Of a stretch of 64,000 nucleotides of DNA, positions 5,777-62,478 are shown one piece after another (the first letter of the stretch is position 1; each line of letters begins with the position of its first letter). The translations under genes were made by a program, and so were the position numbers. The stretch lies in NCBI GenBank assembly GCA_030680175.1, contig JAUXWO010000090.1:9933-73932 (forward strand). Reading direction: 5' to 3'. The notes beneath the pieces are model-generated. The model saw only the letters and a program-made list of their open reading frames with translations, was not told the origin of the DNA and ran no database searches. The DNA is from Vicinamibacterales bacterium (GTDB lineage Bacteria > Acidobacteriota > Vicinamibacteria > Vicinamibacterales > UBA2999).

Positions 5777-6273
5777 CGTTTCCGCTCCTTGACTGCGGCG
5801 CGCGTCTCGCGATCGATCTCGCGCCGCCGGATCGTCTCACGCTTGTCGTGCGCCTGCTTGCCCTTGACCAGGCTGATGGCCACCTTGATGCGGCCGCCCT
5901 TGAAGTACATCCGCAGCGGCACCAGCGTCAGGCCCTTCTCGGCCGTCTTGCCGATCAGCTTGCGGATCTCGGTCCGGTGCAGCAGCAGCTTGCGCTTGCG
6001 GCGCGGGTCGTGATCGACGTACCCGCGGTGGCTGTACGGATTGATGTGGACGTTATGGAGCCACACCTCGCCCTTGTCCACGCGCGCGTAGCTGTCGCGC
6101 AGGTTCGCCTTGCCCTCGCGGATCCCCTTCACCTCGGTGCCGAGCAGCATGATGCCCGCCTCGAACGTCTCGAGGATGTGGTAATCGTGCAGGGCCTTGC
6201 GGTTCTCCGCGATGACCGTCTCGGCCTTCTCCCGCGCCTCGCGGGCGGCCGCGTCCTTCTTCGCCGCGCTCAC
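5773..6273 (-). CDS. smpB: SsrA-binding protein
   Basis: ORF 5773..6477 trimmed to the in-frame GTG at 6273, which overlaps the pdxA stop (GTGA). The sequence [26 protein letters not shown]...[11 protein letters not shown] is typical SmpB. The trimmed product is 166 aa. Confidence 0.9.
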
Positions 6274-7151
6274 GGCGCCCCTCCGGCCGCGGCCAGCCGC
6301 GCCGCCAGCCGCACAGCATGCACGAAGCTGCCCGCGTCCGCCACGCCGCGCCCCGCGATGTCGAACGCCGTCCCATGATCGACGGAGGTCCGCACGATGG
6401 GCAGGCCAAGCGTCACGTTGACGGCCTCGCCGAAGGCCAGCAGCTTCACGGGAATCAGCCCCTGGTCGTGGTAGCACGCCACGACCACGTCGAACTCGCC
6501 GCGCACGGCGCGGACGAACACGGTGTCGGCGGGAATCGGTCCGGTGACGTCGAGGCCCTCGGCGCGGGCGTCGGCCACGGCCGGCGTCAGCACCGTCTCG
6601 TCCTCGACGCCGAGCAGCCCCGATTCACCCGCGTGCGGGTTGAGCCCCGCCAGGGCGATGCGCGGCTTCGCCACGCCGAACCGCGGCAGCGCGCGCGCGG
6701 TGAGCCGAAGGGTGCTCCCGAGCCGCGCGCGGGTCAGCTGGCGCGGCACGTCGGCGAGCGGGATGTGCACGGTGGCCAGGACCACGGCCAGCGTTGGCGC
6801 GTGGAACATCATGGCCACCTCGTCGACGCCGCACAGGTGCGCCAGCAGATCGGTGTGGCCCTTCCATGGCAGCCCGGCCTTCGCAAACGCGAGCTTGTTG
6901 ATGGGGGCCGTGGCGATCGCCGCGACCCGGCCGGCACGCGCGTCCTCGACCGCCCGCACGATCACGTCGTACGCGGCGCGGCCCGCCTCCGCCGACACGA
7001 CGCCCGTCTCGACGCGCACGCCCGGGGGCGGCGCATACACGACCGGCTCGCAGACCTCCCGCACGCGCGGGTCGGCCGCGGCCCGGGCCGCGATCTCGGG
7101 GCCAATGCCGGCCGGGTCGCCGACGGTCATGGCCACGCGGGGCAGAGGCAT
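6270..7151 (-). CDS. pdxA: 4-hydroxythreonine-4-phosphate dehydrogenase
   Basis: Motifs VGDPAGIGPEI, GLNPHAGE and TSVDHGTAFDIAG match the PdxA family. At 293 aa it is somewhat short for the family. Confidence 0.85.
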   Translation of the reverse strand: MPLPRVAMTVGDPAGIGPEIAARAAADPRVREVCEPVVYAPPPGVRVETGVVSAEAGRAAYDVIVRAVEDARAGRVAAIATAPINKLAFAKAGLPWKGHTDLLAHLCGVDEVAMMFHAPTLAVVLATVHIPLADVPRQLTRARLGSTLRLTARALPRFGVAKPRIALAGLNPHAGESGLLGVEDETVLTPAVADARAEGLDVTGPIPADTVFVRAVRGEFDVVVACYHDQGLIPVKLLAFGEAVNVTLGLPIVRTSVDHGTAFDIAGRGVADAGSFVHAVRLAARLAAAGGAP

Positions 7152-7248
7152 CCGACGATTGTACTGCGATCAGCTCTCGGCTATCAGCTGTCGGCGGTCG
7201 GGAGGCAGACGCTGAAAGCCGATCGCCGACAGCCGATCGCCCTCTGCC
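7141..7248. repeat. Imperfect long hairpin built from CGGCTRT-type heptamers and their complement
   Basis: The outer stem is ggcagagg (7141-7148) paired with cctctgcc (7241-7248). The inner arm ctgtcggcggtcgg pairs with ccgatcgccgacag with one mismatch. The element lies between the holB stop and the pdxA start. Confidence 0.8.
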
Positions 7249-7260
7249 GGCCGCAGTCCG

Positions 7261-8310
7261 TCAGATCTGCATCGCGAGCCACTCCGCCACGACCTTCGAG
7301 CCGGCGTTGCGGTCGAGGGCCATGAGGGCGCGGTCCACGGACTGGAACGCCCGGCGGGCGCGGTCGCCGCCCGCGCCGCGCGTCAGGCGCGTGAGGCTGT
7401 CCTGCAGGTCGGGGTTGGCCAGGACGCGTAGATCCGCCCCGGCGTGGATCACCTCGAGGTCGCGCAACATCGACTGCGCGGCACGCAGCACGATGGCCAC
7501 CTCCTCGCGCGTGCGCTCGGGCTTCGCGCCGATCAGCAGCTTCGCCACCTCGAGCTTCTGCCGCACATCGTCCGACCCCACGATCTGAGCGAGGAACGCC
7601 TGCGCGGTCTGGCGCACCTCGGCGAGGTCCTCGGAGCTCTGCGCCAGCGCGCGCGAGATGCTGCCGTCGGCCAGCGCCGCGGCCGCGCGCGCCTCCGCCG
7701 GCGCGATCGCGTAGTCACGCGTGAGCACACCGGTGACTTCGTCCTCCGTCAGGCGCCCGAAGCGGAGGCGCATGCAGCGCGATCGCACGGTCTGCAGCAG
7801 GACGCCGGCCACGGAGGTGACGAGAATGAAGACGGTGGAGGCGGGCGGCTCCTCGAGCGACTTGAGGAGCGCATTCTGGGCCTGGGGCTCGAGCATCTCC
7901 GCATCGCGGATCAGCACGAAGCGGCGCTTCCCTTCGAACGGCCGGAAGTTGCAGCGCTCGAGCACCTCGCGGACGGGGTCGATCTTGATCGACGACTTCT
8001 CGTCGGGTTCGAGCGCCAGCACGTCCACATGCACGCCGCGGGCGATGCGGTCGCACGACTTGCAGGTCCCGCAGGCATCGATCCGGGTTTCGCTGCCCGC
8101 CGCCCCCTCCTCACCGGACCCGTCCTCCGCGCGCGCGGCCACGATGGGGGCCAGGCAGTTCACGGCCGCGGCCACGGCCTGCGCGACCTGCCACTTCCCC
8201 ACGCCGGGCGGGCCGTCGAACAGCAGCGTCGGCGGCAACGTCCCCCGCACAATCGCCCGCGTCAGCAGGCCGATCACGGGACGATGGCCGGCAAGGTCGC
8301 GGAAAGGCAT
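7261..8310 (-). CDS. holB: DNA polymerase III subunit delta'
   Basis: LLFDGPPGVGKWQVAQAVAAAVNC is an AAA+ clamp-loader P-loop. A Zn-module-like CGTCKSCDRI and an SRC motif (TVRSRCMRL) are also present. Confidence 0.85.
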   Translation of the reverse strand: MPFRDLAGHRPVIGLLTRAIVRGTLPPTLLFDGPPGVGKWQVAQAVAAAVNCLAPIVAARAEDGSGEEGAAGSETRIDACGTCKSCDRIARGVHVDVLALEPDEKSSIKIDPVREVLERCNFRPFEGKRRFVLIRDAEMLEPQAQNALLKSLEEPPASTVFILVTSVAGVLLQTVRSRCMRLRFGRLTEDEVTGVLTRDYAIAPAEARAAAALADGSISRALAQSSEDLAEVRQTAQAFLAQIVGSDDVRQKLEVAKLLIGAKPERTREEVAIVLRAAQSMLRDLEVIHAGADLRVLANPDLQDSLTRLTRGAGGDRARRAFQSVDRALMALDRNAGSKVVAEWLAMQI

Positions 8311-8336
8311 GGGGGATTATGGATCGAGGGGGGCGT

Positions 8337-8434
8337 GGGGAGTGGGTAGTGGGGAGTGGGGAGTGGGGAGTGGGCGGTGGGTAGTGGGGAGTGGGTAGTG
8401 GGGAGTGGGGAGTGGGTAGTGGGGAGTGGGTGGC
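8337..8434. repeat. 14 tandem heptamers GGGNAGT (G-quadruplex-type array on the plus strand)
   Basis: Read directly: ggggagt gggtagt ggggagt ggggagt ggggagt gggcggt gggtagt and so on. The array is intergenic between the PBP1A stop (8494) and the holB start (8310). Confidence 0.9.
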
Positions 8435-8493
8435 GGGTATGGTCGTGGATAGTAGGGTCATGGACCGGGGACCACGAATGATCCCCGAGCCCG

Positions 8494-12960: not shown

Positions 12961-13572
12961 CTAGCCCGGCCGTGAGGTTTCGCGGGCGCGCACGATGAAG
13001 CGGTCGGGCGCGGAGCCCAGCCATGTGAAGGGGAAGCAGGTGATGAGGGTCAGGGTCGGCTCGGCCGTCGGGGCGAGCACCTCGACGGCGGTCGGCGGGA
13101 CGACCGACGTCGCCTCCACGATGTAGGTGAACATGCCGCGCGCCGTGCGCAGCGAGATCGTGTCCCCCGTCCGCACGTCCTTCAGCGCCCGAAAGAACGT
13201 GTCGCGGTGGCCGGCCAGCACGACATTGCCTTCGTCGCCCGGCCACGCCGTGCCCGGCAGATGGCCGACGGCCCGTCGCAGGGTCGACGAGGACGACCCG
13301 TGGACGACCATCGCGTCCAGGCCGAGGCGATCGATGCGGACCTCGCCGACCGGATCGCCGTCGACCGGGAGAGCGAGGATCGCCGTCTCCACCTCAGGCC
13401 CCGCGCCACGGGTGGACAGGTCCGCCGCGGGCGGACTGATCAGCGCGACGTGAGCGGCACGTTGAAAGGCCTGCGCCTCGTTCACCGTGTACGCCACGTA
13501 GCCGAGCGCCAGCAGCCCCGCGACCCCGAGCACGAGCGCCGCGAACCGGGCGAGTGAACGGGAGAGGGTCAT
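12961..13572 (-). CDS. Sortase-family transpeptidase
   Basis: VLAGHRDTFFRALKDV carries the catalytic His region. TLTLITCFPF is the TLxTC Cys motif, and RFIVRA contains the Arg. It has an N-terminal TM anchor. The start is set at ATG 13572 with GGAG upstream. Confidence 0.8.
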   Translation of the reverse strand: MTLSRSLARFAALVLGVAGLLALGYVAYTVNEAQAFQRAAHVALISPPAADLSTRGAGPEVETAILALPVDGDPVGEVRIDRLGLDAMVVHGSSSSTLRRAVGHLPGTAWPGDEGNVVLAGHRDTFFRALKDVRTGDTISLRTARGMFTYIVEATSVVPPTAVEVLAPTAEPTLTLITCFPFTWLGSAPDRFIVRARETSRPG

Positions 13573-14781: not shown

Positions 14782-14782
14782 A

Positions 14783-14966
14783 GATAGATCGACCGATCTC
14801 GTGATGTGGTGATCTCGAGATCTCGAATCTTGCGATGTTGCTTCGAACCTCTATTTATCTCGCGATTCTACGATGTCCCGGCGATCATCCGGTAGATCAC
14901 CGCATCGCAGCATCCGAACATTTCGGTCACCACATCACCACATCACGAGATCCGTAGATTCCGAAC
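14783..14966. repeat. Inter-tRNA spacer with GATCT/GTGATGTG-type short repeats and a perfect 19-bp inverted repeat
   Basis: gatctcgtgatgtggtgat (14795-14813) is the exact reverse complement of atcaccacatcacgagatc (14934-14952). Confidence 0.85.
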
Positions 14967-19459: not shown

Positions 19460-19650
19460 AGATAGATATCTCCGCAATCTGGTGATGTGGTGATGTGGTG
19501 ACGTGGTGATCTGATGTGGAGATCTGACGATGTTGCGATCGATGTGGTGATCTGATGGATCTATCTTGTGATCTTAAGGGATCTATCTTGCGATCTTGTG
19601 ATCTTGTGATCTGATGTGGCGATCTGTCATCTGACGAGATCTGTGATGGA
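19460..19650. repeat. GTGATGTG / CTTGTGAT-type 8-mer repeat field filling the waaF-gmhB spacer
   Basis: The sequence reads ggtgatgtggtgatgtggtgacgtggtgatctgatgtgg...cttgtgatcttgtgatctgatgtgg. It belongs to the same word family as 14783-14966 and 30972-31070. The motif continues into the last codons of waaF. Confidence 0.85.
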
Positions 19651-22651: not shown

Positions 22652-24004
22652 TCAGCTCACGACGCGAAACGGGCGCACCTTCGCGCCCGGCCCGTCCACC
22701 GGCAGCAGTGCGAGCAGCGCCGTGACCGTCCGGTCCTTCGCGCCGCGATTGGCCTCGACGAGCGCGCGGGCCGCCGCGCCGAGGCGCGCGCGCCGCACGG
22801 GGTCGGCCATCAGATCCACGAGCGCTGCTTCAAGTTCGCCCGCGGACCGCACCTGCACCCCTGCCTCGTGGGCGACGAAGGCCTCGGCAATCTCCGCGAA
22901 GTTCTGCATGTGCGGGCCGAACACGACGGGCTTGCCGAACACCGCGGGCTCGAGGATGTTGTGACCGCCGGTGGGCACGAGGCTCCCGCCGACGAACGCC
23001 ACGGTCGCGACCTGGTAGATGCGCGCCAGCTCGCCGATCGTATCGAGCACGACGATATCGGCGCGCGGCTCGGCATCCACGGGCAGCTCGCTGCGCCGCA
23101 CCGTGCGGAAGCCCTCTTCGCGGCAGATCTGCTCCACGTCGTCGAACCGCTCGGGGTGCCGCGGCGCGAGGATCAGGAGCGCCCCGGGCTGCGCCGCCTT
23201 GAGCTTGCGGAACGCGCGCAGGACCGCGGCCTCCTCGCCGCGCATCGTGCTGCCCGCCACGAGGACGGGACGCGACGCCGGCACGCGGAAGTAGCGCACG
23301 ACGCGGTCGCGCACGCGGACGTCGGCGGCGGCCACGGGCGCGTCGAGCGAATCGAACTTGAGGCTGCCCGTCACCGTGACACGCGCCGGATCGGCGCCCA
23401 GGTCGACGAAGCGGCGCGCCGATTCCTCGCTCTGCACGCAGAAGCGGTCGACGTGCGCCAGCACGCGGCGCATGAGCGGCCGCACGAGGCGGTAGCGCGG
23501 GTAGGATCGCGACGACAGGCGCCCGTTGACGATGGCCGTCTTCACGCCGCGGCGGTGGCACTCACGCAGCAGGTGCGGCCAGATCTCCGTCTCCATCATC
23601 AGGAACAGCCGTGGCCGCACCAGGTCGAGCGTCCGGCGCACGACGAAGGCGAAATCGAGCGGGAAGTAGAAGACCGCATCCACGTCGGGCACGTTGCGGC
23701 GTGCCAGCTGCTGCCCGGTCATCGTCGTCGTCGACAGGAAGATGCGCAGGCGCGGGTAGTGCTGCCGCAGTTCACGGATCAGCGGACGCACGGACAGCGT
23801 CTCGCCGACCGAGACCGCATGAATCCAGATGGAGGGCTCCGCATCCATGTTGAACGACACGGGGAGCGACCCGAGCCTCTGGGCGAGGCTGTCGACGTAC
23901 TTGCCGTGACGGATCGCCTGGTAGAGCAACCATGGCGAGACCACCACGAAGAGCGCCAGGGCGAACAGGCTGTAGAGGAAATACATGCGCGGCGGCGTGG
24001 CCAC
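22652..24004 (-). CDS. waaA: 3-deoxy-D-manno-octulosonic acid transferase
   Basis: IWIHAVSVGETLSVRPLI is the hallmark KdtA N-terminal motif. The protein is 450 aa. Confidence 0.9.
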   Translation of the reverse strand: MATPPRMYFLYSLFALALFVVVSPWLLYQAIRHGKYVDSLAQRLGSLPVSFNMDAEPSIWIHAVSVGETLSVRPLIRELRQHYPRLRIFLSTTTMTGQQLARRNVPDVDAVFYFPLDFAFVVRRTLDLVRPRLFLMMETEIWPHLLRECHRRGVKTAIVNGRLSSRSYPRYRLVRPLMRRVLAHVDRFCVQSEESARRFVDLGADPARVTVTGSLKFDSLDAPVAAADVRVRDRVVRYFRVPASRPVLVAGSTMRGEEAAVLRAFRKLKAAQPGALLILAPRHPERFDDVEQICREEGFRTVRRSELPVDAEPRADIVVLDTIGELARIYQVATVAFVGGSLVPTGGHNILEPAVFGKPVVFGPHMQNFAEIAEAFVAHEAGVQVRSAGELEAALVDLMADPVRRARLGAAARALVEANRGAKDRTVTALLALLPVDGPGAKVRPFRVVS

Positions 24005-24111
24005 TCCATCCCGAAGCCCGGCCGCGCGCCGTGCGCCCGCCGGTCACGGGATGCCAAAGTGTAACCAACAGAAAACACACGGGTTACAGTCAACGAAGTA
24101 TATCCCCCGGT

Positions 24112-25192
<1,081 letters not shown>

Positions 25193-25206
25193 CGGGGATC
25201 GGGGAA

Positions 25207-25269
25207 CGCCGAAAGCCGAAAGCCGAGAGCCGATAGCCGATAGCCGAGAGCCGAGAGCCGAACGCCGAC
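25207..25269. repeat. Nine tandem heptamers AGCCGAN (gap-pgk spacer)
   Basis: The units read cgccgaa agccgaa agccgag agccgat agccgat agccgag agccgag agccgaa cgccgac. Confidence 0.9.
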
Positions 25270-25278
25270 AGCATCCGT

Positions 25279-26478
25279 ATGACCAAGTACTCGATTCGTG
25301 ACCTCGACCTCGGCGGACGGCGCGTGTTCGTCCGCGTGGACTTCAACGTACCGATCGCGGACGGCGTCCTCGGCGACGAGACGCGGATCATGTCGGCGCT
25401 CCCGACCATTCGCCTGGCGCTCGAGCAGGGCGCCACCGTGGTGCTGGCCTCGCATCTCGGCCGCCCCAAGGGCGCCGTGACCGCGAAGTACAGCCTGCGC
25501 CCGGTGGCCGACCGGCTGGCCGCGATCCTCGGCCGGCCGGTGACGTTCGCCGCCGACTGCGTGGGCCCTCATGCCGAGGCGGCGGTGGCGGAAGCCCACG
25601 GACCGGGCGGCTCGCGCCTGGTGCTCCTCGAGAACCTGCGCTTCCACGCCGCCGAGGAAGCCAACGACGCCGCCTTCGCCGCCGGACTGGCCGCGCTGGC
25701 GGACGACTACGTCAACGACGCCTTCGGCGCGGCGCACCGGGCGCACGCGTCGGTCGCGGCGATCACGACGCACTTCCCGAAGGCGGCCGCCGGGCTCCTG
25801 ATGGAGAAGGAGCTCACGTACCTCGGGATGGCGCTCGACGAGCCGGAGCGGCCGTTCGTGGCGATCCTGGGCGGCGCCAAGGTGTCCGACAAGCTCGAGG
25901 TGATCGAGAACCTGCTGAAGCGCGTCGACCGGCTCCTCATCGGCGGGGCGATGGCGTACACGTTCTTCCGCGCGCTGGGCCTGCCGGTCGGGCGGTCGCT
26001 GGTCGAGGAGGACAAGCTCGACACCGCGCGGACGATCATCACCCACGCGAAGGCGCGCGACGTCCAGTTCTGCCTCCCCGTCGACCACGTCGTCGCCGCG
26101 GCGATCGAGGCGGGCGCCCCGACCGAGATCCTCAAGGTGAACGACGCAGCCATCGGCGACCGCATGGGCCTGGACATCGGGCCGGAGACGACGCGGCTGT
26201 ACGCGACGCTCGTGGCCGACGCGAAGACGATCGTCTGGAACGGGCCGATGGGCGTGTTCGAGACCGACGCATTCGCCAAGGGCACGCTCGGCGTCGCCCG
26301 TGCGGTGGCCGCGAGCACGGGCACGACGATCATCGGCGGGGGCGACTCGGTGGCCGCCATCAATCTGGCCGGCGTCGCCAGCCAGGTCACCCACATCTCA
26401 ACAGGCGGCGGCGCCTCGCTCGAGTTCCTCGGCGGCCGGATCCTGCCGGGGGTCGCCGCGCTGCCCGACAAGGGCTAG
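25279..26478 (+). CDS. pgk: Phosphoglycerate kinase
   Basis: [11 protein letters not shown] and ASHLGRPKG motifs are present. The C-terminus has [13 protein letters not shown]-like [13 protein letters not shown]. Confidence 0.95.
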
Positions 26479-26485
26479 GGGCGCT

Positions 26486-26667
26486 GTTCGCGATTCGCGA
26501 TTCGCGATTCGCTATTCGCGGTTCGCTATTCGCGGTTCGCAATTCGCAGTTCGCCCGTGCGCCGTTACGTTCTGCATCGTGCATTTCGCATTTCGCGACC
26601 CGCAGTCCGCGATTCGCCGTTCGCTCTCTGTTTTTGCATTCTGCATTTTGCATTTCGCTTTTTGCGT
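26486..26667. repeat. Heptamer array RTTCGCN x10 followed by degenerate GCATTT(C/T) repeats (pgk-tpiA spacer)
   Basis: The array starts gttcgcg attcgcg attcgcg attcgct attcgcg gttcgct attcgcg gttcgca attcgca gttcgcc. It continues with gcatttcgcatttcgcg...tttttgcattctgcattttgcatttcgc. Confidence 0.9.
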
Positions 26668-26698
26668 CCGGCCCTTCCGCCCTTGACCGAGTGAGACC

Positions 26699-27460
26699 AT
26701 GCGCCAGCCGATGATTGCCGGGAACTGGAAGATGTTCAAGACGGTCCACGAGGCCGTCGTGTTCGTGAAGGAGCTGCGCCCGCTCGTCGCGGATGTCACG
26801 GGCGTGGAGATCGTCGTCGCGCCGCCCTTCACGGCGATTCACGCGGTGGCCGAGGCCGCGCGCAACACGAACATCGGGGTGAGCGCCCAGTCCCTCCACT
26901 GGGAGCGCGAGGGTGCGTTCACGGGGGAGGTGAGCGCGGGGATGGTGCGCGAGGCGGGCGCCGAGTACGTGATCCTCGGCCACTCGGAGCGCCGGACGCT
27001 GTTTGGCGACACGGACCTGACGGTCAACCGCCGGCTGATGGCCGCGCTCGCCGCCGAGCTGACGCCGATCGTCTGCGTGGGCGAGACGCTGGAGCAGCGC
27101 GAAGGCGGGCAGACGCTGGCCGTGCTCGACCAGCAGTTGAAGCAGAGCCTCGATGGCGTGACCGGTGCCCAGCTGGCGGCGATCGTGGTGGCGTATGAGC
27201 CGGTGTGGGCGATCGGCACCGGCCGCAACGCCACCCCGGCGCAGGCCGGCGAGGCGCACACGCACCTGCGCGGACGGCTGCGCCAGTGGTTCGGCGCCGA
27301 CGCGGCCGAGCAGTGCCGCCTGCTCTACGGCGGCAGCGTGAAGCCGGGAAACATCGCGACGCTCATCGCCGAAGCCGACGTCGACGGCGCCCTGGTCGGC
27401 GGCGCCAGCCTGGATGTCGCGTCGTTTGCCGAGATCGTCAGGGGAGCGCTCGGACGGTAG
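26699..27460 (+). CDS. tpiA: Triose-phosphate isomerase
   Basis: IAGNWKM, GHSERR, AYEPVWAIGTG and YGGSV motifs are all present. Confidence 0.95.
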   Translation: MRQPMIAGNWKMFKTVHEAVVFVKELRPLVADVTGVEIVVAPPFTAIHAVAEAARNTNIGVSAQSLHWEREGAFTGEVSAGMVREAGAEYVILGHSERRTLFGDTDLTVNRRLMAALAAELTPIVCVGETLEQREGGQTLAVLDQQLKQSLDGVTGAQLAAIVVAYEPVWAIGTGRNATPAQAGEAHTHLRGRLRQWFGADAAEQCRLLYGGSVKPGNIATLIAEADVDGALVGGASLDVASFAEIVRGALGR

Positions 27461-27462
27461 AC

Positions 27463-27632
27463 AGCGATCAGTGGTCGGCTGTCGGCTATCAGCGATCGGC
27501 TTTCGGCTTTCGGCTTTCGGCTACCAGCTTCCGGCGCCACCCCGGCACCACGGCACCACGGCACCACGGCACCTCGGCACCCCGCCCCCAGGCACCCCGG
27601 GCACCCAGGGCACCCCGGGCACCCCGAGCACC
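27463..27632. repeat. Composite array: CGGCTNT heptamers then GGCACCNC 8-9-mers (tpiA-secG spacer)
   Basis: The first part reads cggctgtcggctatcagcgatcggctttcggctttcggctttcggct. The second reads ggcaccacggcaccacggcaccacggcacctcggcacc...ggcaccccgggcacccagggcaccccgggcaccccgagcacc. Confidence 0.9.
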
Positions 27633-27702
27633 TTGTCCCCGACCGCCCCGCCGTTGTATGATTGCGGTTTGTGACGCCGGGCAGATCCGGCGCAGAACAT
27701 CC

Positions 27703-28092
27703 ATGTATTACCTGCTGGTCGGCCTCTACGTCGTCATCTGTCTGGTGCTCATCGTCGTCGTTCTCCTGCAGCAGGGGAAGGGCGGGGACATCGCGGCCGC
27801 GTTTGGCGGCGGCGGCAGCCAGGCGGCCTTTGGCGCGCGCGCCGGGGCCACGTTCCTCACGAAGATGACGGCGGGGCTGGCCGTGTCGTTCATGGTGCTC
27901 GCGCTCGGCCTCGCGATTTGGGGCCAGCAGGGACCAGGGTCGGTGGTCGGCGGCGTCGATGGGCCGCCGCAAGTGCCGGCCGGCATCACGCTGCCTGCGG
28001 ACAGCCCCGTGCCGACGCCGACGCCGACGCCGCCACCGCAGCCCGAGCAGCCCCAGACGCCCGAAGGCGGCACGCCGCCCCAGGGTCAGTAG
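27703..28092 (+). CDS. secG: Preprotein translocase subunit SecG (with Pro-rich C-terminal tail)
   Basis: This is the internal ATG of ORF 27205..28092. The sequence [47 protein letters not shown]-like is the SecG signature. A tRNA-Leu follows, as in many bacteria. Confidence 0.85.
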   Translation: [129 protein letters not shown]

Positions 28093-28138
28093 TTTTCGAC
28101 CGCGGGCCCCGGCCCGCACGTGTAAGTCCCCTCTCGAC

Positions 28139-28224
28139 GCGGAAGTGGCGGAATGGCAGACGCACCAGCTTGAGGGGCTGGCGGGGGCAACCCCGTGGAG
28201 GTTCGAGTCCTCTCTTCCGCACCA
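28139..28224 (+). tRNA. tRNA-Leu (anticodon GAG)
   Basis: The acceptor stem is GCGGAAG/CTTCCGC. The anticodon stem-loop is CCAGC-TTGAGGG-GCTGG. It has a long variable arm (CGGGGGCAACCCCGT), T-loop GGTTCGAGTCC, and encoded CCA. Length is 86 nt. Confidence 0.9.
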
Positions 28225-28602
28225 ACCTCAAGGCCCGCTTCAGGCGGGCCTTTCGTTTTGGTGCCTCAGCGGGACTCAGCCACTCGGTCGTCGCGCTCCG
28301 CGCTCGACCTGGAGGGGTCGAGTCCCTGGTTCCGCACCAACCTCAAGGCCCGCTTCAGGCGGGCCTTTCGCTTTGGTGCCTCGAGAGGACTCAGCCACTC
28401 GGTCGTCGCGCTCCGCGCTCGACCTGGAGAGGTCGAGTCCCTGGTTCCGCACCAACCTCAAGGCCCCTTCAGGCGGGCCTTTCGCTTTGGTGCCTCGAGA
28501 GGACTCAGCCACTCGGTCGTCGCGCTCCGCGCTCGACCTGGAGAGGTCGAGTCCCTGGTTCCGCACCAACCTCAAGGCCCCTTCAGATGGGCCTTTTGTC
28601 GC
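28225..28602. repeat. 3.3 tandem copies of a 115-bp unit, each with a terminator hairpin and a mimic of the tRNA-Leu 3' end
   Basis: The units are 28225-28339, 28340-28454 and 28455-28568, with a partial unit at 28569-28602. Each unit ends in gtcgagtccctggttccgcacca, compared with the genuine gttcgagtcctctcttccgcacca. Confidence 0.9.
28230..28260 (+). terminator. Intrinsic terminator after tRNA-Leu
   Basis: The stem aaggcccgc / gcgggcctt has loop ttcag and is followed by tcgttttg. The same hairpin recurs at the start of each 115-bp repeat unit. Confidence 0.7.
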
Positions 28603-28690
28603 AATAACTTACGCCTCGATTAGCGCAATAACCTATTAATAGCTCAACTTAATAACCTATGATATGCGTGACGCCATTCCCTATGAATGG
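28603..28690. other. AT-rich junction with three direct AATAACYTA words
   Basis: The sequence is gcaataacttacgcctcgattagcgcaataacctattaatagctcaacttaataacctatgatatg. Its composition contrasts sharply with the rest of the window. Confidence 0.7.
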
Positions 28691-28721
28691 CCCGCCGCAC
28701 CCGTGACCCTGGATACAAGCG

Positions 28722-30287
28722 ATGGCAACGCCGCAGGAAAAGCTGGCTGAGTCTCTTGATGCCCTGCACGCGCTGCAGGCGCGCAGCGTGGCAATCCGCT
28801 CCGCTGATTTGAGCCGTACGCACCGCGAGCGCCTGCTCGGCGCCGGTTTCCTGCGGGAAGTGATCAAGGGCTGGTATGTCCCCGCGCGGCCGGACGAGGT
28901 GCCGGGCGACAGCACGCCGTGGTACGCCTCGTTCTGGGATTTCTGCGCCGCCTATCTGGCCGCGCGCTTCGGGAAGGACTGGTGCCTTTCTCCCGAGCAA
29001 TCGCTCTCCTTGCACGCCGGTAACAGGGCCGTGCCGGCGCAGCTGCTCGTGCGCACGCCCAAGGGCGGCAACAAGCCCACCGCGCTGCCGCATGGCACGT
29101 CGCTGTTTGATGTGCGCTATGCGATGCCGAAAGACAGCGAGGTCGTCGAGCGCGATGGTCTGCGGCTGTTCTCCGTTCCGGCGGCACTGGTGACGATATC
29201 GGAGCAGCACTTCGGCCGTGCGGCAACGGATGTGCGCGCAGCCATGGCGGGCGTCAAGGACGCCTCTGACGTGCTTGCCGTCCTGCTCGAGGGCGGCCAC
29301 AGCACGATCGCCGGGCGCCTGGCCGGCGCGTTCCGCAATGTCGGACAGGCGCGTATCGCCGACGGGATTCTCAAGACGATGACAGCGGCCGGCTACACGG
29401 TGCGGGAGAGCGATCCGTTCGAGGACCAGCCGGGCATCGTGCTGGCCGGCCGTGACGTTTCGCCCTACGTGAACCGCATTCGCCTGATGTGGGATGCGAT
29501 GCGTCAGCCTGCGCTGGATGCGTTTCCTGCCGCACCCGGACTCTCCCGCCAGCTGGAGACGTATCTGAAAGCCGTCGAGGACGTGTATGTGAACGATGCC
29601 TACCACTCCCTGTCGATTGAGGGCTACCGGGTCAGCCGCGAGCTCATCGAACGTGTGCGCAGCGGTGCGTGGAATCCCGATCAGAACGCCGAGGATCGTG
29701 AGAATCGCAGTGCACTCGCTGCGCGCGGGTACTACGATGCGTTCGGCGCAGTGAAGGCGAGTATCGGGAACGTGCTGCGCGGCGATAATCCTGGGATAGT
29801 CAGCCGCGATGATCACTCTGGCTGGTACCGGCGCCTGTTCGGACCGAGCGTGAGCGCGGGTCTCATCCGCGCTGCCGATCTGGCGGGCTACCGCAGCGGA
29901 CCGGTTTATATCCGGCGCTCGATGCATGTGCCGCCGCCGCGCGAGGCGGTGCGCGATTGCATGCCGGCGCTGTTCGAGCTTCTCGCGTCGGAGCCTGAAC
30001 CGGCTGTGCGCGCCGTGCTCGGGCACTTCGCGTTCGTTTACATCCATCCTTATATGGACGGCAACGGAAGGATGGGGCGCTTCCTGATGAATGTGATGAT
30101 GGCTGCGGGCGGCTACCCGTGGACCATCATTCCCCTTGAGCGGCGTGACGAGTACATGGCCACGCTCGAATCCGCGAGCGTGAAGCAGGACATCCGCCCG
30201 TTTGCGGCTTTCATCGGCGGCCTGGTGCGCGACGGCCTGCAAGGCAAGCCGCCGCCGCCCGTGCCGCTTCCGCGCGCGCGGTCATGA
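28722..30287 (+). CDS. Fic/DOC family protein (large, with N-terminal AbiEi-like domain)
   Basis: The Fic core motif is HPYMDGNGRMGR (HxFx[D/E]GNGRxxR). An upstream SLSIEG matches the [S/T]xxxE[G/N] inhibitory-helix motif. The N-terminus (RERLLGAGFLREVIKGWYVPARPDE) resembles AbiEi-type wHTH domains. Confidence 0.9.
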   Translation: MATPQEKLAESLDALHALQARSVAIRSADLSRTHRERLLGAGFLREVIKGWYVPARPDEVPGDSTPWYASFWDFCAAYLAARFGKDWCLSPEQSLSLHAGNRAVPAQLLVRTPKGGNKPTALPHGTSLFDVRYAMPKDSEVVERDGLRLFSVPAALVTISEQHFGRAATDVRAAMAGVKDASDVLAVLLEGGHSTIAGRLAGAFRNVGQARIADGILKTMTAAGYTVRESDPFEDQPGIVLAGRDVSPYVNRIRLMWDAMRQPALDAFPAAPGLSRQLETYLKAVEDVYVNDAYHSLSIEGYRVSRELIERVRSGAWNPDQNAEDRENRSALAARGYYDAFGAVKASIGNVLRGDNPGIVSRDDHSGWYRRLFGPSVSAGLIRAADLAGYRSGPVYIRRSMHVPPPREAVRDCMPALFELLASEPEPAVRAVLGHFAFVYIHPYMDGNGRMGRFLMNVMMAAGGYPWTIIPLERRDEYMATLESASVKQDIRPFAAFIGGLVRDGLQGKPPPPVPLPRARS

Positions 30288-30324: not shown

Positions 30325-30358
30325 GGGCGGCCCGGTAGTGGAACGTCAACGACACCCC
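30325..30358. repeat. Half copy (right arm) of the 112-bp palindromic element
   Basis: gggcggcccggtagtggaacgtcaacgacacccc aligns with gggcggcccggtagtagatcgtcaacgacac(g/c)cc in copies A and B. Confidence 0.75.
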
Positions 30359-30666
30359 CTTTAATCCCGGTCGGCCCTTGCGTTGGCGTTGCGGAGGCCG
30401 ACGTGGGAGGCGCGCGATGGGCGTCAGTACGCAACGTGCGCCGCAGGGAGCGTGCGCTTTCGAGCGCCGGCGCCGTAGGCCCAGCCGAAGGGGGGCCGGG
30501 TAGGCGCGGCGCGATGGGCGTCAGCACGAAAGCGCTCGCGCACGGAGGCGCAGGTGGCGAGCGCGCCCTCCCGGAGGCCGGAGCGACGGCAACGCAAGGG
30601 CCGATCGCGATTTGGGGGGGGGCGGGACTGCGGCGAGGCCGGTCTTTAGGTACGGAGCGAGAATCC

Positions 30667-30969: not shown

Positions 30970-30971
30970 TC

Positions 30972-31147
30972 AGATATCTCGCGATGTCGTGATGTGGTGA
31001 TCTGGTGATGGGATGTGCGATGTCAGGATCTCACGATCTATCTCGTGAGCTGCCCCGATCTCTCGATCTGCGTCCCCGCCGACAGCGGCGCGCCTTGTGC
31101 CGAGAGCCGGAAGCCGAAAGCCGATCGCTGATCGCTGATCGCTGACC
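30972..31147. repeat. Composite repeat field: GATCT/GTGATGTG words, then seven GCYGANN heptamers
   Basis: The first part reads gatatctcgcgatgtcgtgatgtggtgatctggtgatgggatgtgcgatg...gatctctcgatctg. The second reads gccgaga gccggaa gccgaaa gccgatc gctgatc gctgatc gctgacc. Confidence 0.85.
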
Positions 31148-31162
31148 GCCAGCGCGCAAGCG

Positions 31163-31345
31163 TCACACCCGCGCTGGCCTCCCCTTGAGCGGACAGGTGT
31201 CGCAGTTCAGCGACTCGCCGTCCGGGCCGAGCACCTCGGGGCCGCCGCAGGATCCACGCAGGCAGCGGTCTGAGAAGAGCACACCGACGGCCATCGCCAG
31301 CATGGCGATCCCGATGACGGCGATGGTGAGCAGCAGCAGTCCCAT
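31163..31345 (-). CDS. nqrM: (Na+)-NQR maturation factor NqrM
   Basis: The protein is 60 aa with one N-terminal TM helix. It has the conserved Cys pattern RGSCGG...CDTCP. Its start overlaps the apbE stop (TAATG). Confidence 0.75.
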   Translation of the reverse strand: MGLLLLTIAVIGIAMLAMAVGVLFSDRCLRGSCGGPEVLGPDGESLNCDTCPLKGRPARV

Positions 31346-32412
31346 TACGGTCTTCCCGCCGGCGCGGCCAGCGCCTCGAAGCGCGGCGTGCCCCGGCTCT
31401 CGAACCCGTCGCCGCCCTCGGCGCGGACGATGAAGAGGGCCGCGAGGTCGAGCGACTCGGCCAGCGCGTAGCCCTCGTCAGGGCCGAGCACCATGAGCGC
31501 CGTCGAGAGCCCGTCCGCGCGAACCCCGAGCGCGTCGACCACGGTCACCGACGCCAGCCGGTGGCGGATGGGCCGGCCCGTCCGCGGGTCCAGGATGTGC
31601 GCCACGCGCACGCCCTCCACCTCATGATAGTTCCGGTAGTCGCCGGAGGTCGCAATGGCGCCGTCGGTGATGGGGATCATCCGCTCGATGAACCGCCCCT
31701 GCTCGGTCGGACGCTCGACGGCGATCTGCCACGGCGTGCCCGCGTCGTTGAAGCCGCGCACGCGAAACTCCCCGCCGACATCCACCAGGAAATCCGTCGC
31801 GCCGCGCTCGACGAGGAGCGCGGCCAGGCGATCCGCCGCATAGCCGGGCGCCAGCGACGAGAACTCGCAGACGATGTCGGGCCGCAGCTTGCGGACGGTG
31901 CGGGCCTCGGCGTCGAGGACGACGTGGCGCAGGCCGGTGCCCTCGAGCAGGCGCGCGACCTCCGCGTCCGTCGGCGCCAGGTCACGCGGGCCGGCAGGGC
32001 CGAAGCCCCAGGCGTCGAGCAGGGGCCCGACCGTCACGTCCAGCGCGCCGCCGGTCATCGCCTCGAGCGTCCGCGCCCACGCGAACACCTCGAACGTCTC
32101 GGGCGCAACCGGGAACGGGTCGAGGCTGGGGGACTGATTGAAGCGGGAGAGCTCCGACGCGGGGTCCCACGTCGACATCAGCACGTTGATGCGCTCGAGG
32201 TCGGCGCGGATCAGCGCATCGATCTCTGGTGCGCCCGCAAGACCCTCCGGGCCGGTCACCACCTTCACGGTGAACGTGGCGCCCATCGTCGGGCCCGAGA
32301 ACTCGATGGTCTGCCGCGAAGGCGCCGGCGCCCCGGCGCAGGCCGCGACGACGCCCGTCCAGACGAGGAGCCCGCTGGCCGCGACGACACGCCGGAGAGT
32401 GTGGACGTTCAT
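31345..32412 (-). CDS. apbE: FAD:protein FMN transferase
   Basis: It has a lipoprotein-like N-terminus (VVAAC). The ApbE motifs TSGDYRNY and AHILDPRTGRP are present. Confidence 0.9.
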   Translation of the reverse strand: MNVHTLRRVVAASGLLVWTGVVAACAGAPAPSRQTIEFSGPTMGATFTVKVVTGPEGLAGAPEIDALIRADLERINVLMSTWDPASELSRFNQSPSLDPFPVAPETFEVFAWARTLEAMTGGALDVTVGPLLDAWGFGPAGPRDLAPTDAEVARLLEGTGLRHVVLDAEARTVRKLRPDIVCEFSSLAPGYAADRLAALLVERGATDFLVDVGGEFRVRGFNDAGTPWQIAVERPTEQGRFIERMIPITDGAIATSGDYRNYHEVEGVRVAHILDPRTGRPIRHRLASVTVVDALGVRADGLSTALMVLGPDEGYALAESLDLAALFIVRAEGGDGFESRGTPRFEALAAPAGRP

Positions 32413-32428
32413 GCGCCGTGTACCGTGT

Positions 32429-32459
32429 GCCGAAAGCTGATAGCCGACAGCTGAAAGCC
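32429..32459. repeat. Four heptamers GCYGANA (nqrF-apbE spacer)
   Basis: The units read gccgaaa gctgata gccgaca gctgaaa gcc. Confidence 0.8.
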
Positions 32460-32479
32460 CCCGACCTGGCCACCCGTGC

Positions 32480-33706
32480 CTATCCGAAGTCGTCGAACAG
32501 GACGTTCTCGCGCTCGACGCCGAGGTTGTCGAGCATCGTCATGCAGGCCTGCAGCATCATGGGCGGGCCGCACAGGTAGTACTCGATGTCTTCCGGCGCG
32601 GGATGATCCTTCAGGTACTGCGCGAGCACGACCTTGTGGATGAAGCCGGTGTGGCCGGTCCAGTTGTCTTCCGGCAGCGGCTCCGACAGCGCGAGATGCC
32701 ACTTGAAGTTCGGGTAGTCACGCTGGATCGAGTCGAAGTCCTCGACGTAGAACGCCTCGCGCAGGCTGCGGGCGCCGTACCAGAAGGTGACGGTGCGGCC
32801 GGTCTTCACCCGCTTGAACAGGTCGAAGATGTGCGACCGCATCGGCGCCATGCCCGCGCCGCCGCCGATGAACATCATCTCGTTGGCGGTCTCCTTGGTG
32901 AAGAACTCGCCGAAGGGACCGGCGATGGTCACCTTGTCGCCCGGCTTCAGGTTGAAGATGTACGACGACATCACGCCCGGCGGGATGCCCTCGGGGCCCC
33001 GCGGCGGCGGCGACGCGATGCGCACGTTCAACATGATCACGCCGCGCTCATCCGGGTAGTTCGCCATCGAGTAGGCGCGCGACACCGTCTCGTCGACCGT
33101 CGAGACGTAGCGCCACATGTTGAACTTGTCCCAGTCGCCGCGGTACTCGTCCTCGACGTGGAAGTCCTTGTAGTGGGCGACGTGCGGCGGGCACTTGATC
33201 TGGATGTACCCGCCCGCACGGAACGGCACCGACTGGCCCTCCGGCAGCTCGAGCACGAGTTCCTTGATGAAGGTCGCCACGTTCTCGTTCGACCGGACGG
33301 TGCACACCCACTCCTGGACGGAGAAGATCTCGTGCGGCACCTCGATCCGCATGTCGCCCTTCACCTTGACCTGGCAGGTCAGGCGCACGCCCTCGCGTTC
33401 CTCGCCACGGCTGATGTGGCTGCGCTCGGTCGGCAGCACGGCGCCGCCGCCTTCGAGCACCTTGGCCGTGCACACGCCGCACGTGCCCTTCCCGCCGCAC
33501 GCCGAGGGGATGAAGATCTTCTGGTCGGCCAGCGTCGCGAGCAGGGTGCCACCCGCCTGCGTCACGATCGGCTTCGCCTCGTCACCGTTGACGACGATGC
33601 GGACCTGGCCGGTGGCGACGAGCTTGCTGCGGGCCACGAGCAGCAGCCCGACGAGCGCCAGGATGACGCCCGTGAACATGCCGACGCCCATCACGATGGT
33701 GGTCAT
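32480..33706 (-). CDS. nqrF: Na+-translocating NADH:quinone oxidoreductase subunit F
   Basis: It has an N-terminal TM helix and a 2Fe-2S ferredoxin motif ([10 protein letters not shown]). RAYSMANYP is the FAD-binding motif, and [12 protein letters not shown] is the NAD-binding motif. Confidence 0.95.
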
Positions 33707-33724
33707 TAGTGTCTTGCTCCTGAC

Positions 33725-33814
33725 GCGATCAGCTATCGGCTATCGGCTATCGGCAGGACACCCGCCGGGCATGGCGTGACAGCGTGACGGGCCGAAAGCC
33801 GAAAGCCGAGAGCC
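33725..33814. repeat. Inverted heptamer arrays (CGGCTAT x3 ... GCCGARA x3) inside the nqr operon
   Basis: The left arm is gcgatcagctatcggctatcggctatcggc (33725-33754). The right arm is gccgaaagccgaaagccgagagcc (33791-33814). The arms are imperfect reverse complements separated by a 36-nt loop. Confidence 0.85.
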
Positions 33815-33821
33815 ACTCCCG

Positions 33822-40953: not shown

Positions 40954-41022
40954 TGCGTCCCCCTCGGAGACCAGCCTACCAGTACGCGCCGCGGACGCGC
41001 CCCCGTGGTCCCCGCTTCCCGC

Positions 41023-41077
41023 CCCCGATCCCCGATCCCCGATCCCTGATCCCTGATCCCCCGATCCCCGATCCCCG
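41023..41077. repeat. Eight tandem heptamers CCCYGAT (G4N3 motif on the minus strand)
   Basis: The units read ccccgat ccccgat ccccgat ccctgat ccctgat cccccgat ccccgat ccccg. The array lies in the divergent spacer between the DUF3014 and amidase genes. Confidence 0.9.
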
Positions 41078-42816: not shown

Positions 42817-42865
42817 GGGGATCGGCGAATAGCGAACAGCGAATGGCGAATAGCGAATAGCGAAC
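42817..42865. repeat. Seven tandem heptamers RGCGAAY (complement of the RTTCGCN family)
   Basis: The units read ggggatc ggcgaat agcgaac agcgaat ggcgaat agcgaat agcgaac. The array ends 1 nt before the GH15 GTG start. Confidence 0.9.
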
Positions 42866-62387: not shown

Positions 62388-62478
62388 GTCTATCGGCTAT
62401 CGGCGCTCAGCTATCGGCTTTCGGCTTTCGGCTTTCGGCTGCCTTTTCGCATTTCGCATTTCGCATTTTGCATTCCGC
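62388..62478. repeat. Composite array: CGGCTNT heptamers then CGCATTT heptamers
   Basis: The units read ctatcggctatcggcgctcagctatcggctttcggctttcggctttcggct gccttttcgcatttcgcatttcgcattttgcattccg. Confidence 0.9.

Follow-up and report, generated by a model that had tools for sequence, protein, structure and literature searches.

The three spacers of the operon gap-pgk-tpiA-secG, which lies in a 64,000-nucleotide stretch of DNA from a Vicinamibacterales bacterium (contig JAUXWO010000090.1, assembly GCA_030680175.1, positions 9,933 to 73,932; in the following, the window), are filled with tandem arrays of short repeats. These arrays (Table 1) are probably local representatives of heptanucleotide simple sequence repeats (SSRs) that are spread over the intergenic DNA of the whole genome and driven by slippage, and the RNA duplex that two of them, A1 and A3, are predicted to form would be a by-product. 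The evidence comes from the anatomy of the spacers, from the distribution of the repeat families in the window and in metagenomes, from copy-number change and turnover among relatives, and from in silico pairing. According to this model, arrays lengthen and shorten by whole units, presumably through replication slippage, and a limited set of families recurs at many loci in both orientations; some arrays are inverted pairs, i.e. palindromic elements, and one arm of such a pair can outlast the other. Arrays are tolerated in spacers, mostly between co-directional genes, and inflate spacers that measure 10-23 nt in array-free relatives. Those of the gap operon would most likely be transcribed passengers of the gap-pgk-tpiA mRNA. 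An effect on expression, if there is any, might be exerted via RNA structure, namely by a double-stranded RNA (dsRNA) segment that alters decay or serves as a substrate of RNase III. Such an effect would be specific to the lineage and adjustable through copy number rather than a conserved regulatory device.

Repeat arrays in the spacers of the gap operon

The sequence-only reading of this DNA had stated that all three spacers carry repeat arrays, and every array it described was found by Tandem Repeats Finder (TRF) and by unit listing. The spacers measure 86 nt (gap-pgk), 220 nt (pgk-tpiA) and 242 nt (tpiA-secG), in a window with a GC content of 70%. Array A1 in the gap-pgk spacer consists of the nine units that had been counted (in order CGCCGAA, AGCCGAA, AGCCGAG, twice AGCCGAT, twice AGCCGAG, AGCCGAA, CGCCGAC), seven of which match AGCCGAN exactly; two units, GGGGATC and GGGGAAC, lie ahead of it at 25194-25207. 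By itself A1 folds weakly (-5.4 kcal/mol), i.e. it is unstructured. The pgk-tpiA spacer contains, as described, ten TTCGCNN units (A2a), in which the palindrome TCGCGA recurs every 7 nt, and a degenerate period-7 field (A2b) of about 14 units, whose register is kept to about position 26670 and in which TRF calls period 7 at 26581-26596 and 26632-26665. The local fold of this whole spacer is not significant (z = -1.7). In the tpiA-secG spacer, A3 comprises about 11 units of the types CAGCGAT, CAGTGGT and CGGCTNT (TRF period 7 at 27475-27522, periods 14-28 over 27462-27535); it is followed by the GGCACC-containing units of A4, which abut the -35 hexamer of a promoter-like site of secG.

The period-7 autocorrelation amounts to 0.80, 0.60 and 0.73 in the gap-pgk, pgk-tpiA and tpiA-secG spacers (z = 9.3, 9.4 and 9.0 versus dinucleotide shuffles), and all other periods of the heptamer arrays are at or below chance; A4 has a period of 8 (z = 6.0). 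Head-to-tail 7-nt repeats exceed the length expected by chance, which places the arrays structurally with short tandemly repeated repetitive (STRR) sequences and heptanucleotide SSRs. Coding or peptide repeats are ruled out by the period of 7. On inspection of the sequence, a sigma-54-like reading of the GGCAC units was dropped, as the GG-to-GC spacing does not fit the consensus.

Distribution of heptamer arrays in the window and in metagenomes

A period scan of the window returned nine strong segments of period 7 with 595 nt in total, and zero to two segments for each of the periods 5, 6 and 8-11. On a gene map based on GC content at third codon positions (GC3), 608 of the 638 period-7 nucleotides fall in non-coding DNA, which makes up 8.8% of the window; the period-7 arrays fill about 11% of all its non-coding DNA. 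Among spacers of at least 20 nt, arrays were scored in nine of 29 co-directional, one of six divergent and none of five convergent ones, and the number of array-bearing spacers rises to about 14 once weaker arrays and the hairpins of the inverted-repeat search are added. At least six heptamer families are dispersed over these spacers in the manner of STRRs. Half of the spacers contain the AGCCGA/TCGGCT family (7163-7257, 25204, 27462, 31099, 32429, 33728/33791 and 62386, in both orientations); TTCGCNN at 26487 recurs inverted as GCGAANN at 42825, a TTTCGCA array is located at 62445, and 8-mers of the GTGGTGAT type are found at 14806, 19487 and 30994. At the end of the Na+-NQR operon (nqrE, nqrF, apbE, a small open reading frame and a YCII gene; 30970-33821), AGCCGA-family arrays occupy three consecutive spacers, and the region 33707-33821 contains a local TCGGCT...AGCCGA hairpin of -54.7 kcal/mol. 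Relative to transcription, the AGCCGA arrays of the window show no preferred orientation (three versus two). The gap operon is not special, because arrays occur in about 14 spacers and the same families are present in both orientations. For this genome, the view that its spacers are unusual is not supported: period-7 arrays are a window-wide feature, and the nqr operon likewise fills three consecutive spacers. In annotation, such spacers should be taken as operon-specific regulators only on the basis of expression data.

Beyond the window, more than 120 metagenome contigs among the matches listed contain the exact 27-mer AGCCGAA x4. In the 80 of these that were analysed (L090-L169), period 7 dominates with 109 arrays versus at most 15 for any other period. 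As their GC content ranges from 43 to 72%, one heptamer unit is common to evidently different lineages. Where crude, GC3-based calls were obtained for both flanking genes, 11 of the 27-mer seeds lie between convergent, 14 between co-directional and two between divergent genes; at the co-directional loci the AGCCGA array is antisense in 10 cases and sense in four, which is not significant. The same comparisons bear on the possibility of an assembly artefact: the window stems from a metagenome-assembled genome (MAG), and tandem repeats are prone to copy-number misassembly, but the same families were found in the same spacers of independent JGI, ENA and NCBI assemblies, some with contigs of 0.13-1.4 Mb, and the AGCCGAA array is present in the unrelated contigs counted above. 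We regard an artefact as practically negligible.

A limited repertoire of units that is reused genome-wide would also be expected if the heptamers were iterated DNA or transcript sites for a nucleoid-associated, cold-shock-type or other single-strand-binding protein acting on many operons; we know of no candidate protein. The GGCACC units, with a conserved core and variable linkers of 2-3 nt, would suit such sites, and CspB is reported to bind heptamer repeats with one protein per unit (reviewed in PMC4679880). The lack of an orientation preference in the window (three versus two) and at the metagenome loci (10 versus four), the many unrelated unit sequences, and the free loss or replacement of arrays between close relatives make protein-binding arrays very improbable.

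Several loci of the window deserve separate mention. Inverted 8-mer arrays (GTGGTGAT / ATCACCAC, GATCTCGA) enclose the spacer between tRNA-Val and tRNA-Asp (14782-14966, minus strand), whose predicted fold is a single long hairpin (-79.7 kcal/mol, z = -4.7) that resembles a processing stem. Between the minus-strand genes of DNA polymerase III delta' and a class A penicillin-binding protein, GAGTGGG is repeated 15 times (8326-8438); the plus strand has regular G3 runs and G-quadruplex potential, and the mRNA strand would read CCCACUC x15, which is C-rich, G-free and similar to a Rho-utilisation site. Eight copies of CCCCGAT (complement of GGGGATC) at 41011-41077 end 2 nt upstream of an amidase start codon and form the only array seen in a divergent spacer of the window. 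A 45-nt inverted repeat with 78% complementarity (30355-30399 / 30576-30620, 176 nt apart) sits in the 379-nt convergent spacer between a Fic-domain gene and a YCII gene.

Copy-number change and turnover among relatives

Nine relatives of the operon were recovered by protein search and contig look-ups. By Pgk identity the genomes group as window and L081 (95%); L084, L085 and L086 (88-92% mutual identity); L082; L087; and L088 with L089; a contig scan for relatives gave a best match of 73% identity among the matches listed. In L081, the spacers hold the families of their counterparts in the window and have near-identical flanks, but the arrays differ in length by 27 nt and by 126 nt (18x7). 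As in STRRs, copy number varies while the position is kept. These length differences between near-identical flanks are the signature of unit-wise expansion and contraction, for which replication slippage is the presumable cause.

Across relatives of 77-92% identity, arrays are swapped, halved or absent. L084, L085 and L086 represent three different states. L085 has an AGCYGAW array in the gap-pgk spacer and no arrays in the other spacers of the operon. In L086, a TCGGCT and an AGCYGA arm make up a local hairpin in gap-pgk, a CCAGTTN/AACTGGN pair lies in pgk-tpiA, and GGCACCTTG units precede secG. L084 possesses practically no gap-pgk spacer and carries TCGGCTN and GGCACCTGA arrays before secG. 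The gap-pgk spacer of L082 contains a local TCGGCT...AGCCGA hairpin (-37.4 kcal/mol); other families are found in its pgk-tpiA spacer, and heptamers are absent before secG. The gap-pgk spacers of L087 and L089 are array-free and only 21-23 nt long, and L088 and L089 have other families (CCCAAGA/TCTTGGG and GGGACTT) with very long inverted arms. A1-type and A3-type arrays have been gained and lost independently among these genomes. In the units upstream of secG, the GGCACC core is constant across relatives and the linkers of 2-3 nt vary (GGCACCAC, GGCACCCC, GGCACCTTG, GGCACCTGA).

Some of the more distant genomes contain conspicuous arrays of their own. In L088, about 18 copies of TCTTGGG followed by about 10 copies of CCCAAGA (6198-6410) lie inside the pgk-tpiA spacer, and in L089, arms of about 130 nt built from GGGCTTGA-type units follow tpiA between convergent genes (about 7200-7575); both have the potential to form a giant hairpin or cruciform. 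In distant Acidobacteriota (Pyrinomonadaceae MAGs and the relative of 73% identity), heptamer arrays of unrelated units (GGTCTTA, CAGTTTT/AACTGGA, CCACTGA) directly flank pgk (L010 3872-3954; L012 3907-3993 and 5239-5287; L001 5276-5301).

Complementarity of A1 and A3

The two families in the gap-pgk and tpiA-secG spacers are indeed reverse complements of each other, as had been proposed. The arms 25208-25265 and 27464-27521 comprise 58 nt each, are 84% complementary and 2198 nt apart, and constitute the longest inverted repeat within 3 kb anywhere in the window. Co-folding of the two arrays in silico, which had been suggested as a check, was positive: the isolated duplex reaches -99.6 kcal/mol versus -45.6 +/- 4.9 kcal/mol for shuffles, and duplex energies range from -99.6 to -115 kcal/mol (z about -8 to -11), with about 60 pairs and a longest uninterrupted run of 27 bp. 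In the minimum free energy (MFE) structure of 25150-27703, 63 long-range pairs join the two spacers; this structure gains 88 kcal/mol over a fold whose pairs span at most 300 nt. The partition function assigns to 63 of the 86 bases of the gap-pgk spacer a pairing with the tpiA-secG spacer at P > 0.5, and 41 pairs of the same type are predicted for L081. All these values describe equilibrium folding, which leaves out co-transcriptional folding and ribosomes. As no terminator-like site was detected between the arms in a crude consensus scan, both could reside on one transcript and offer at least 20 bp of dsRNA.

On these grounds one could argue that the pairing around pgk-tpiA, which the sequence-only reading had suggested, is a functional long-range bracket: A1 (AGCCGAN) and A3 (UCGGCUN) would form a duplex of about 60 bp on the gap-pgk-tpiA transcript that is cut by RNase III or stabilises the mRNA, so that pgk-tpiA would be separated from gap and the stoichiometry set, with a stem length tuned by slippage. 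The analogues would be the processing stems of rRNA and the heptamer hairpin in the 5'-untranslated region (5'-UTR) of Haemophilus influenzae hmw, where a transcribed heptamer SSR hairpin is a proven RNase III target with copy-number-dependent output (PMC12721329). Besides the energies and pairing probabilities given above, the unstructured state of isolated A1 and the lack of a terminator-like site between gap and secG in the scan are in favour of such a bracket, as is an independent cross-spacer pair that flanks pgk in L088. The comparison with relatives argues against a conserved device. For gap-pgk versus tpiA-secG, the complementarity reaches z = -8.1 for the window and z = -6.0 for L081, but, among relatives of 84-86% identity, only -0.7 in L085, -0.9 in L086 and +0.1 in L082, and L084 lacks the A1 arm altogether; pairing is neither conserved nor covarying at 83-86% identity. 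L085 and L086 have only the A1 type, L084 has only the A3 type, and L082 and L086 pair locally. That the A1/A3 pair is confined to one shallow lineage, the window and its relative of 95% identity, is the strongest argument against a conserved bracket. The stability hardly differs between the strands (sense -107.8, antisense -105.5 kcal/mol); a strand-asymmetry test based on G-U wobbles favoured the sense strand in four of four cases, by a margin of 2-7 kcal/mol that is not decisive. Moreover, the order AGCCGA to TCGGCT realised by A1 and A3 is rare among genuine local pairs (2 of 19). Since the AGCCGA family is present in roughly half of the array-bearing spacers in about equal orientations, we estimate that an operon with three filled spacers would contain two complementary arrays about one time in four by chance. 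The bracket is therefore judged unlikely. It looks as if the complementarity arises from the commonest family lying in opposite orientation in two spacers, with the duplex as a by-product.

The sequence-only reading had also held that absence of the arrays from close relatives, at unchanged expression, would speak against its proposal; arrays are absent or replaced in several relatives, which bears out this argument in part.

A more far-reaching idea, which we consider improbable, is that oppositely oriented transcribed arrays in housekeeping operons act as evolvable dsRNA switches: stems between two arms on one mRNA, whether close together or, like A1 and A3 around pgk-tpiA, kilobases from each other, would be sensitive to RNase III, stoichiometry would be tuned by slippage, and the arms would have been spread by a palindromic element of fixed TCGGCT to AGCCGA order. 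If this were true, the hmw mechanism, so far that of a phase-variable adhesin, would also operate in the core metabolism of a major soil phylum. In general, if complementary arrays were substrates of RNase III, slippage would provide a mutational route to retune the stoichiometry of an operon.

Signs of a palindromic element

Among all sequences in hand, 17 local inverted pairs of the AGCCGA family have the order TCGGCT to AGCCGA, and two have the reverse order; examples of such pairs are 33728/33796 in the window, 9741/9778 in L082 and 1714/1744 in L086. Thermodynamics does not account for this bias, because the helix is identical in both orders; it may result from common descent from one palindromic element or from selection against a 3' arm that is rich in U. 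The 21-mer AGCCGAAAGCCGATCGCTGAT, a composite junction at 31112, occurs inverted at 27488 within A3 as ATCAGCGATCGGCTTTCGGCT; the composite is also present in A3 of L081, in the gap-pgk spacer of L086 and at 7163-7257 of the window. Hairpin versions of the arrays lie at 7163-7257, 33707-33821 and 14782-14966. The spacer between a HAD and a GT9 (heptosyltransferase) gene, 19460-19626 in the window, aligns with the orthologous spacer of L082 (4139-4230) only as reverse complement, with a score of 87 versus 14 for the direct orientation and 11 +/- 1.7 for shuffles. Both spacers share one 8-mer family in inverted form, while the flanking genes keep their orientation. This reversal could be due to an inversion, to insertion in either orientation or to the retention of alternative arms of a palindrome.

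From these observations we infer that palindromic array pairs were formerly present in some spacers and that lineages have kept different arms of them. A1 probably represents the 3' arm of a local TCGGCT...AGCCGA hairpin whose 5' arm has been lost, the hairpin being still intact in L082 and L086, and A3 may be the 5' arm of another palindromic array pair; such a survival of arms would explain the rarity of the order seen in A1 and A3.

Carried further, the same findings lead to a dispersed palindromic element that is mobile or copied and pasted between spacers in either orientation, comparable to repetitive extragenic palindromic (REP) sequences and bacterial interspersed mosaic elements (BIMEs) or to miniature inverted-repeat transposable elements. 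Its unit would be GCGATC(AGCTNTC/GGCTNTC)n - loop - (GANAGCC)nGATCGC, and A1 and A3 would be decayed half-elements with slippage-expanded arms. Such an element, which is compatible with much of the slippage model, would account for the inverted 21-mer junction shared by 27488 and 31112 and its further occurrences, for the 17:2 bias, as one ancestral architecture predicts, for the reversed HAD-GT9 spacer and for the hairpin versions in a tRNA spacer and in nqrE-nqrF. It is at odds with the finding that an inverted partner is near only six of the 80 AGCCGAA x4 seeds (about 7%), so that most arrays are solo. Target-site duplications, terminal repeats and a REP-associated tyrosine transposase were not identified, although no search was aimed at the latter; the GAGTGGG, CCACCGT and GGCACC families have no palindromic partner in the window, and the GGCACC array looks as if derived locally from sequence adjacent to the -35 hexamer of secG. 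In sum, we assign a low probability to spreading by such an element.

The slippage model, which we prefer, has to face several facts that weigh against it. Independent slippage from random seeds does not predict the same heptamers at many loci and in many lineages, so that some copying, mobility or selection must act in addition. The A1/A3 duplex has a very high predicted stability and prevails in the equilibrium ensemble, and the independent complementary pair of L088, which belongs to another family, reaches z = -14.7. The AGCCGA family persists in the gap-pgk spacer of five of the six closest genomes, and GGCACC units persist upstream of secG in four of these six; both may reflect constraint and not descent alone. 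Finally, there is the strong 17:2 bias in the order of local inverted pairs.

Comparison with known repeat systems

Heptanucleotide arrays have long been noticed, and their function is unexplained in several bacterial groups. According to a 2007 survey, as quoted in two later papers, heptameric SSRs are over-represented in bacterial intergenic DNA (PMC4692102, PMC4679880). The cyanobacterial STRRs are heptanucleotide repeats of several families in intergenic DNA including operon spacers, such as hupS-hupL of Nostoc and Anabaena, and some form hairpins; roles in transcript stability, translational coupling and termination have been proposed (PMC2670836, PMC4692102). For these STRRs, for GGGNATC of Xanthomonas and Nostoc and for TAACTGA of Beggiatoaceae, there is no established function (PMC4692102, PMC4679880, PMC2670836). 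In hmw1A of H. influenzae, the (ATCTTTC)n array of the 5'-UTR forms a long hairpin that RNase III cleaves, and the level of expression is inversely proportional to the number of copies (PMC12721329); this is the one mechanistically solved transcribed heptamer array.

The arrays described here fit the structural class, but not the named cyanobacterial, G-quadruplex or REP/BIME families. With STRRs they share tandem 7-nt units, several families, a location in intra-operon spacers and occasional hairpins; they differ in their acidobacterial host, in high-GC units (AGCCGAA, TTCGCGA, GCATTTC) that are unrelated, and in being mixed with 8- to 9-nt arrays. The units AGCCGAN, TTCGCNN, GCATTTC and CGGCTNT of this Vicinamibacterales host are not known from the named STRR families. 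Like SSRs of the GGGNATC and TAACTGA type, the arrays have a dominant period of 7, lie in intergenic DNA near the ends of open reading frames, keep their position while length and sequence vary, occur occasionally as inverted pairs and, as TAACTGA does, share one unit across distant taxa. There is even a GGGGATC-type array at 41011-41077, in addition to the two units at the start of the gap-pgk spacer; unlike in those systems, several families coexist without a single dominant one, and whole spacers are filled. G-quadruplexes are not a common denominator, because most units lack G-runs: at least four runs of G3 or longer are found at 41011-41077 and 8326-8438, and the main arrays of the three operon spacers have no G3 runs.

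As in hmw, a heptamer SSR array would combine here with complementary sequence into a long dsRNA stem, whose length is set by copy number. In hmw, however, the partner is a nearby G-rich region of the same 5'-UTR, the gene encodes a phase-variable adhesin and the proof is experimental, whereas here the predicted partner is a further array of a housekeeping operon, which lies at a distance of 2.2 kb and is not conserved. REP/BIME sequences likewise occur in operon spacers, in both orientations and with hairpin versions, and could protect upstream mRNA; A1, A2 and A3 are direct heptamer arrays and not imperfect palindromes of about 35 nt, palindromic versions being limited to some other loci, and most arrays are solo.

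In the literature searched, no report on heptamer or other tandem repeat arrays in Acidobacteria or Vicinamibacter was found. Heptamer arrays fill roughly one tenth of the non-coding DNA in this Vicinamibacterales window, which adds a new phylum to their hosts. They are found within core operons (glycolysis, Na+-NQR, tRNA clusters), and their turnover is visible among relatives of 77-95% identity. Two leads result, namely the 17 versus 2 order bias and the apparent swapping of arms between orthologous spacers.

Transcription signals and the secG leader

Table 1. Features of the gap-pgk-tpiA-secG region; positions refer to the window
Feature	Position	Strand	Basis or remark
Promoter-like site upstream of gap, TTGACG-16-TAAAAT, 10/12	24112..24139	+	consensus scan
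gap (GAPDH)	24200..25192	+	Pfam Gp_dh_N/Gp_dh_C
Array A1, AGCCGAN heptamers x9-10	25204..25272	+	TRF (period 7, 9.9 copies), unit listing
pgk	25279..26478	+	Pgk 100% identical to phosphoglycerate kinase P0001, Vicinamibacterales MAG (Acidobacteriota)
Array A2a, TTCGCNN heptamers x10	26482..26556	+	TRF period 7/14 (26482-26554), unit listing
Array A2b, degenerate period-7 field, GCATTTC / TTTTGCA units	26570..26670	+	TRF, unit listing
tpiA	26699..27460	+	Pfam TIM
Array A3, CAGCGAT/CGGCTNT heptamers x11, reverse-complement family of A1	27462..27537	+	TRF, unit listing, inverted-repeat search
Array A4, GGCACC-containing 8-9-mers x11.5	27538..27632	+	TRF (period 8), unit listing
secG promoter-like site, TTGTCC-18-TATGAT	27633..27662	+	consensus scan, comparison with relatives
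Conserved secG leader, hairpin GCGCCGG...CCGGCGC	27663..27702	+	comparison with relatives
secG	27703..28092	+	Pfam SecG
tRNA-Leu(gag)	28139..28224	+	3' of secG; tRNA search
Terminator-like hairpin	28230-28252	+	after tRNA-Leu(gag); only one on this strand (crude consensus scan)

According to the sequence-only reading, independent promoters or terminators in each spacer, with no signal of processing or pairing, would refute its proposal. Crude consensus scans found neither promoter-like nor terminator-like sites in the gap-pgk and pgk-tpiA spacers; before secG, a promoter-like site is present, so that this argument applies in part, to one of the three spacers. Its -10 hexamer reads TATGAT or TATGCT in all five relatives checked, and the TTG-type -35 hexamer with a spacing of 18 nt is kept in four of four (L081, L082, L085, L086). 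Because this site is kept in relatives, secG probably has its own promoter, and A3 and A4 would be 3'-untranslated sequence of the gap-pgk-tpiA transcript. The site is part of a block upstream of secG (27633-27702) that is conserved in L081, L082, L084, L085 and L086 and consists of -35- and -10-like hexamers at fixed spacing, followed by TGCGGTTTGTGACGCCGG...CCGGCGCAGAA; the loop of the hairpin in this block varies among relatives. In L086, the -35 hexamer of secG is situated where the GGCACC array ends, a hint that this array grew out of promoter-adjacent sequence. An Rfam scan of 23900-28800 matched solely the tRNA-Leu, i.e. no known RNA family was recognised in the spacers.

Downstream of secG, the segment 28198-28596 is made up of 3.5 copies of a 115-bp unit with 95% identity, the first of which starts inside tRNA-Leu(gag). 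Each copy contains the 3' end of the tRNA (T-arm/acceptor-like, GTCGAGTCC...CCGCACCA) and a terminator hairpin; a Fic/DOC-domain gene follows at 28809-30287. In L084, a 56-bp tandem repeat of four copies with a T-arm-like piece (13041-13265) directly follows tRNA-Leu and precedes HTH_17/MerR genes. The region of secG and tRNA-Leu thus looks like a recurrent hot spot of integration or duplication.

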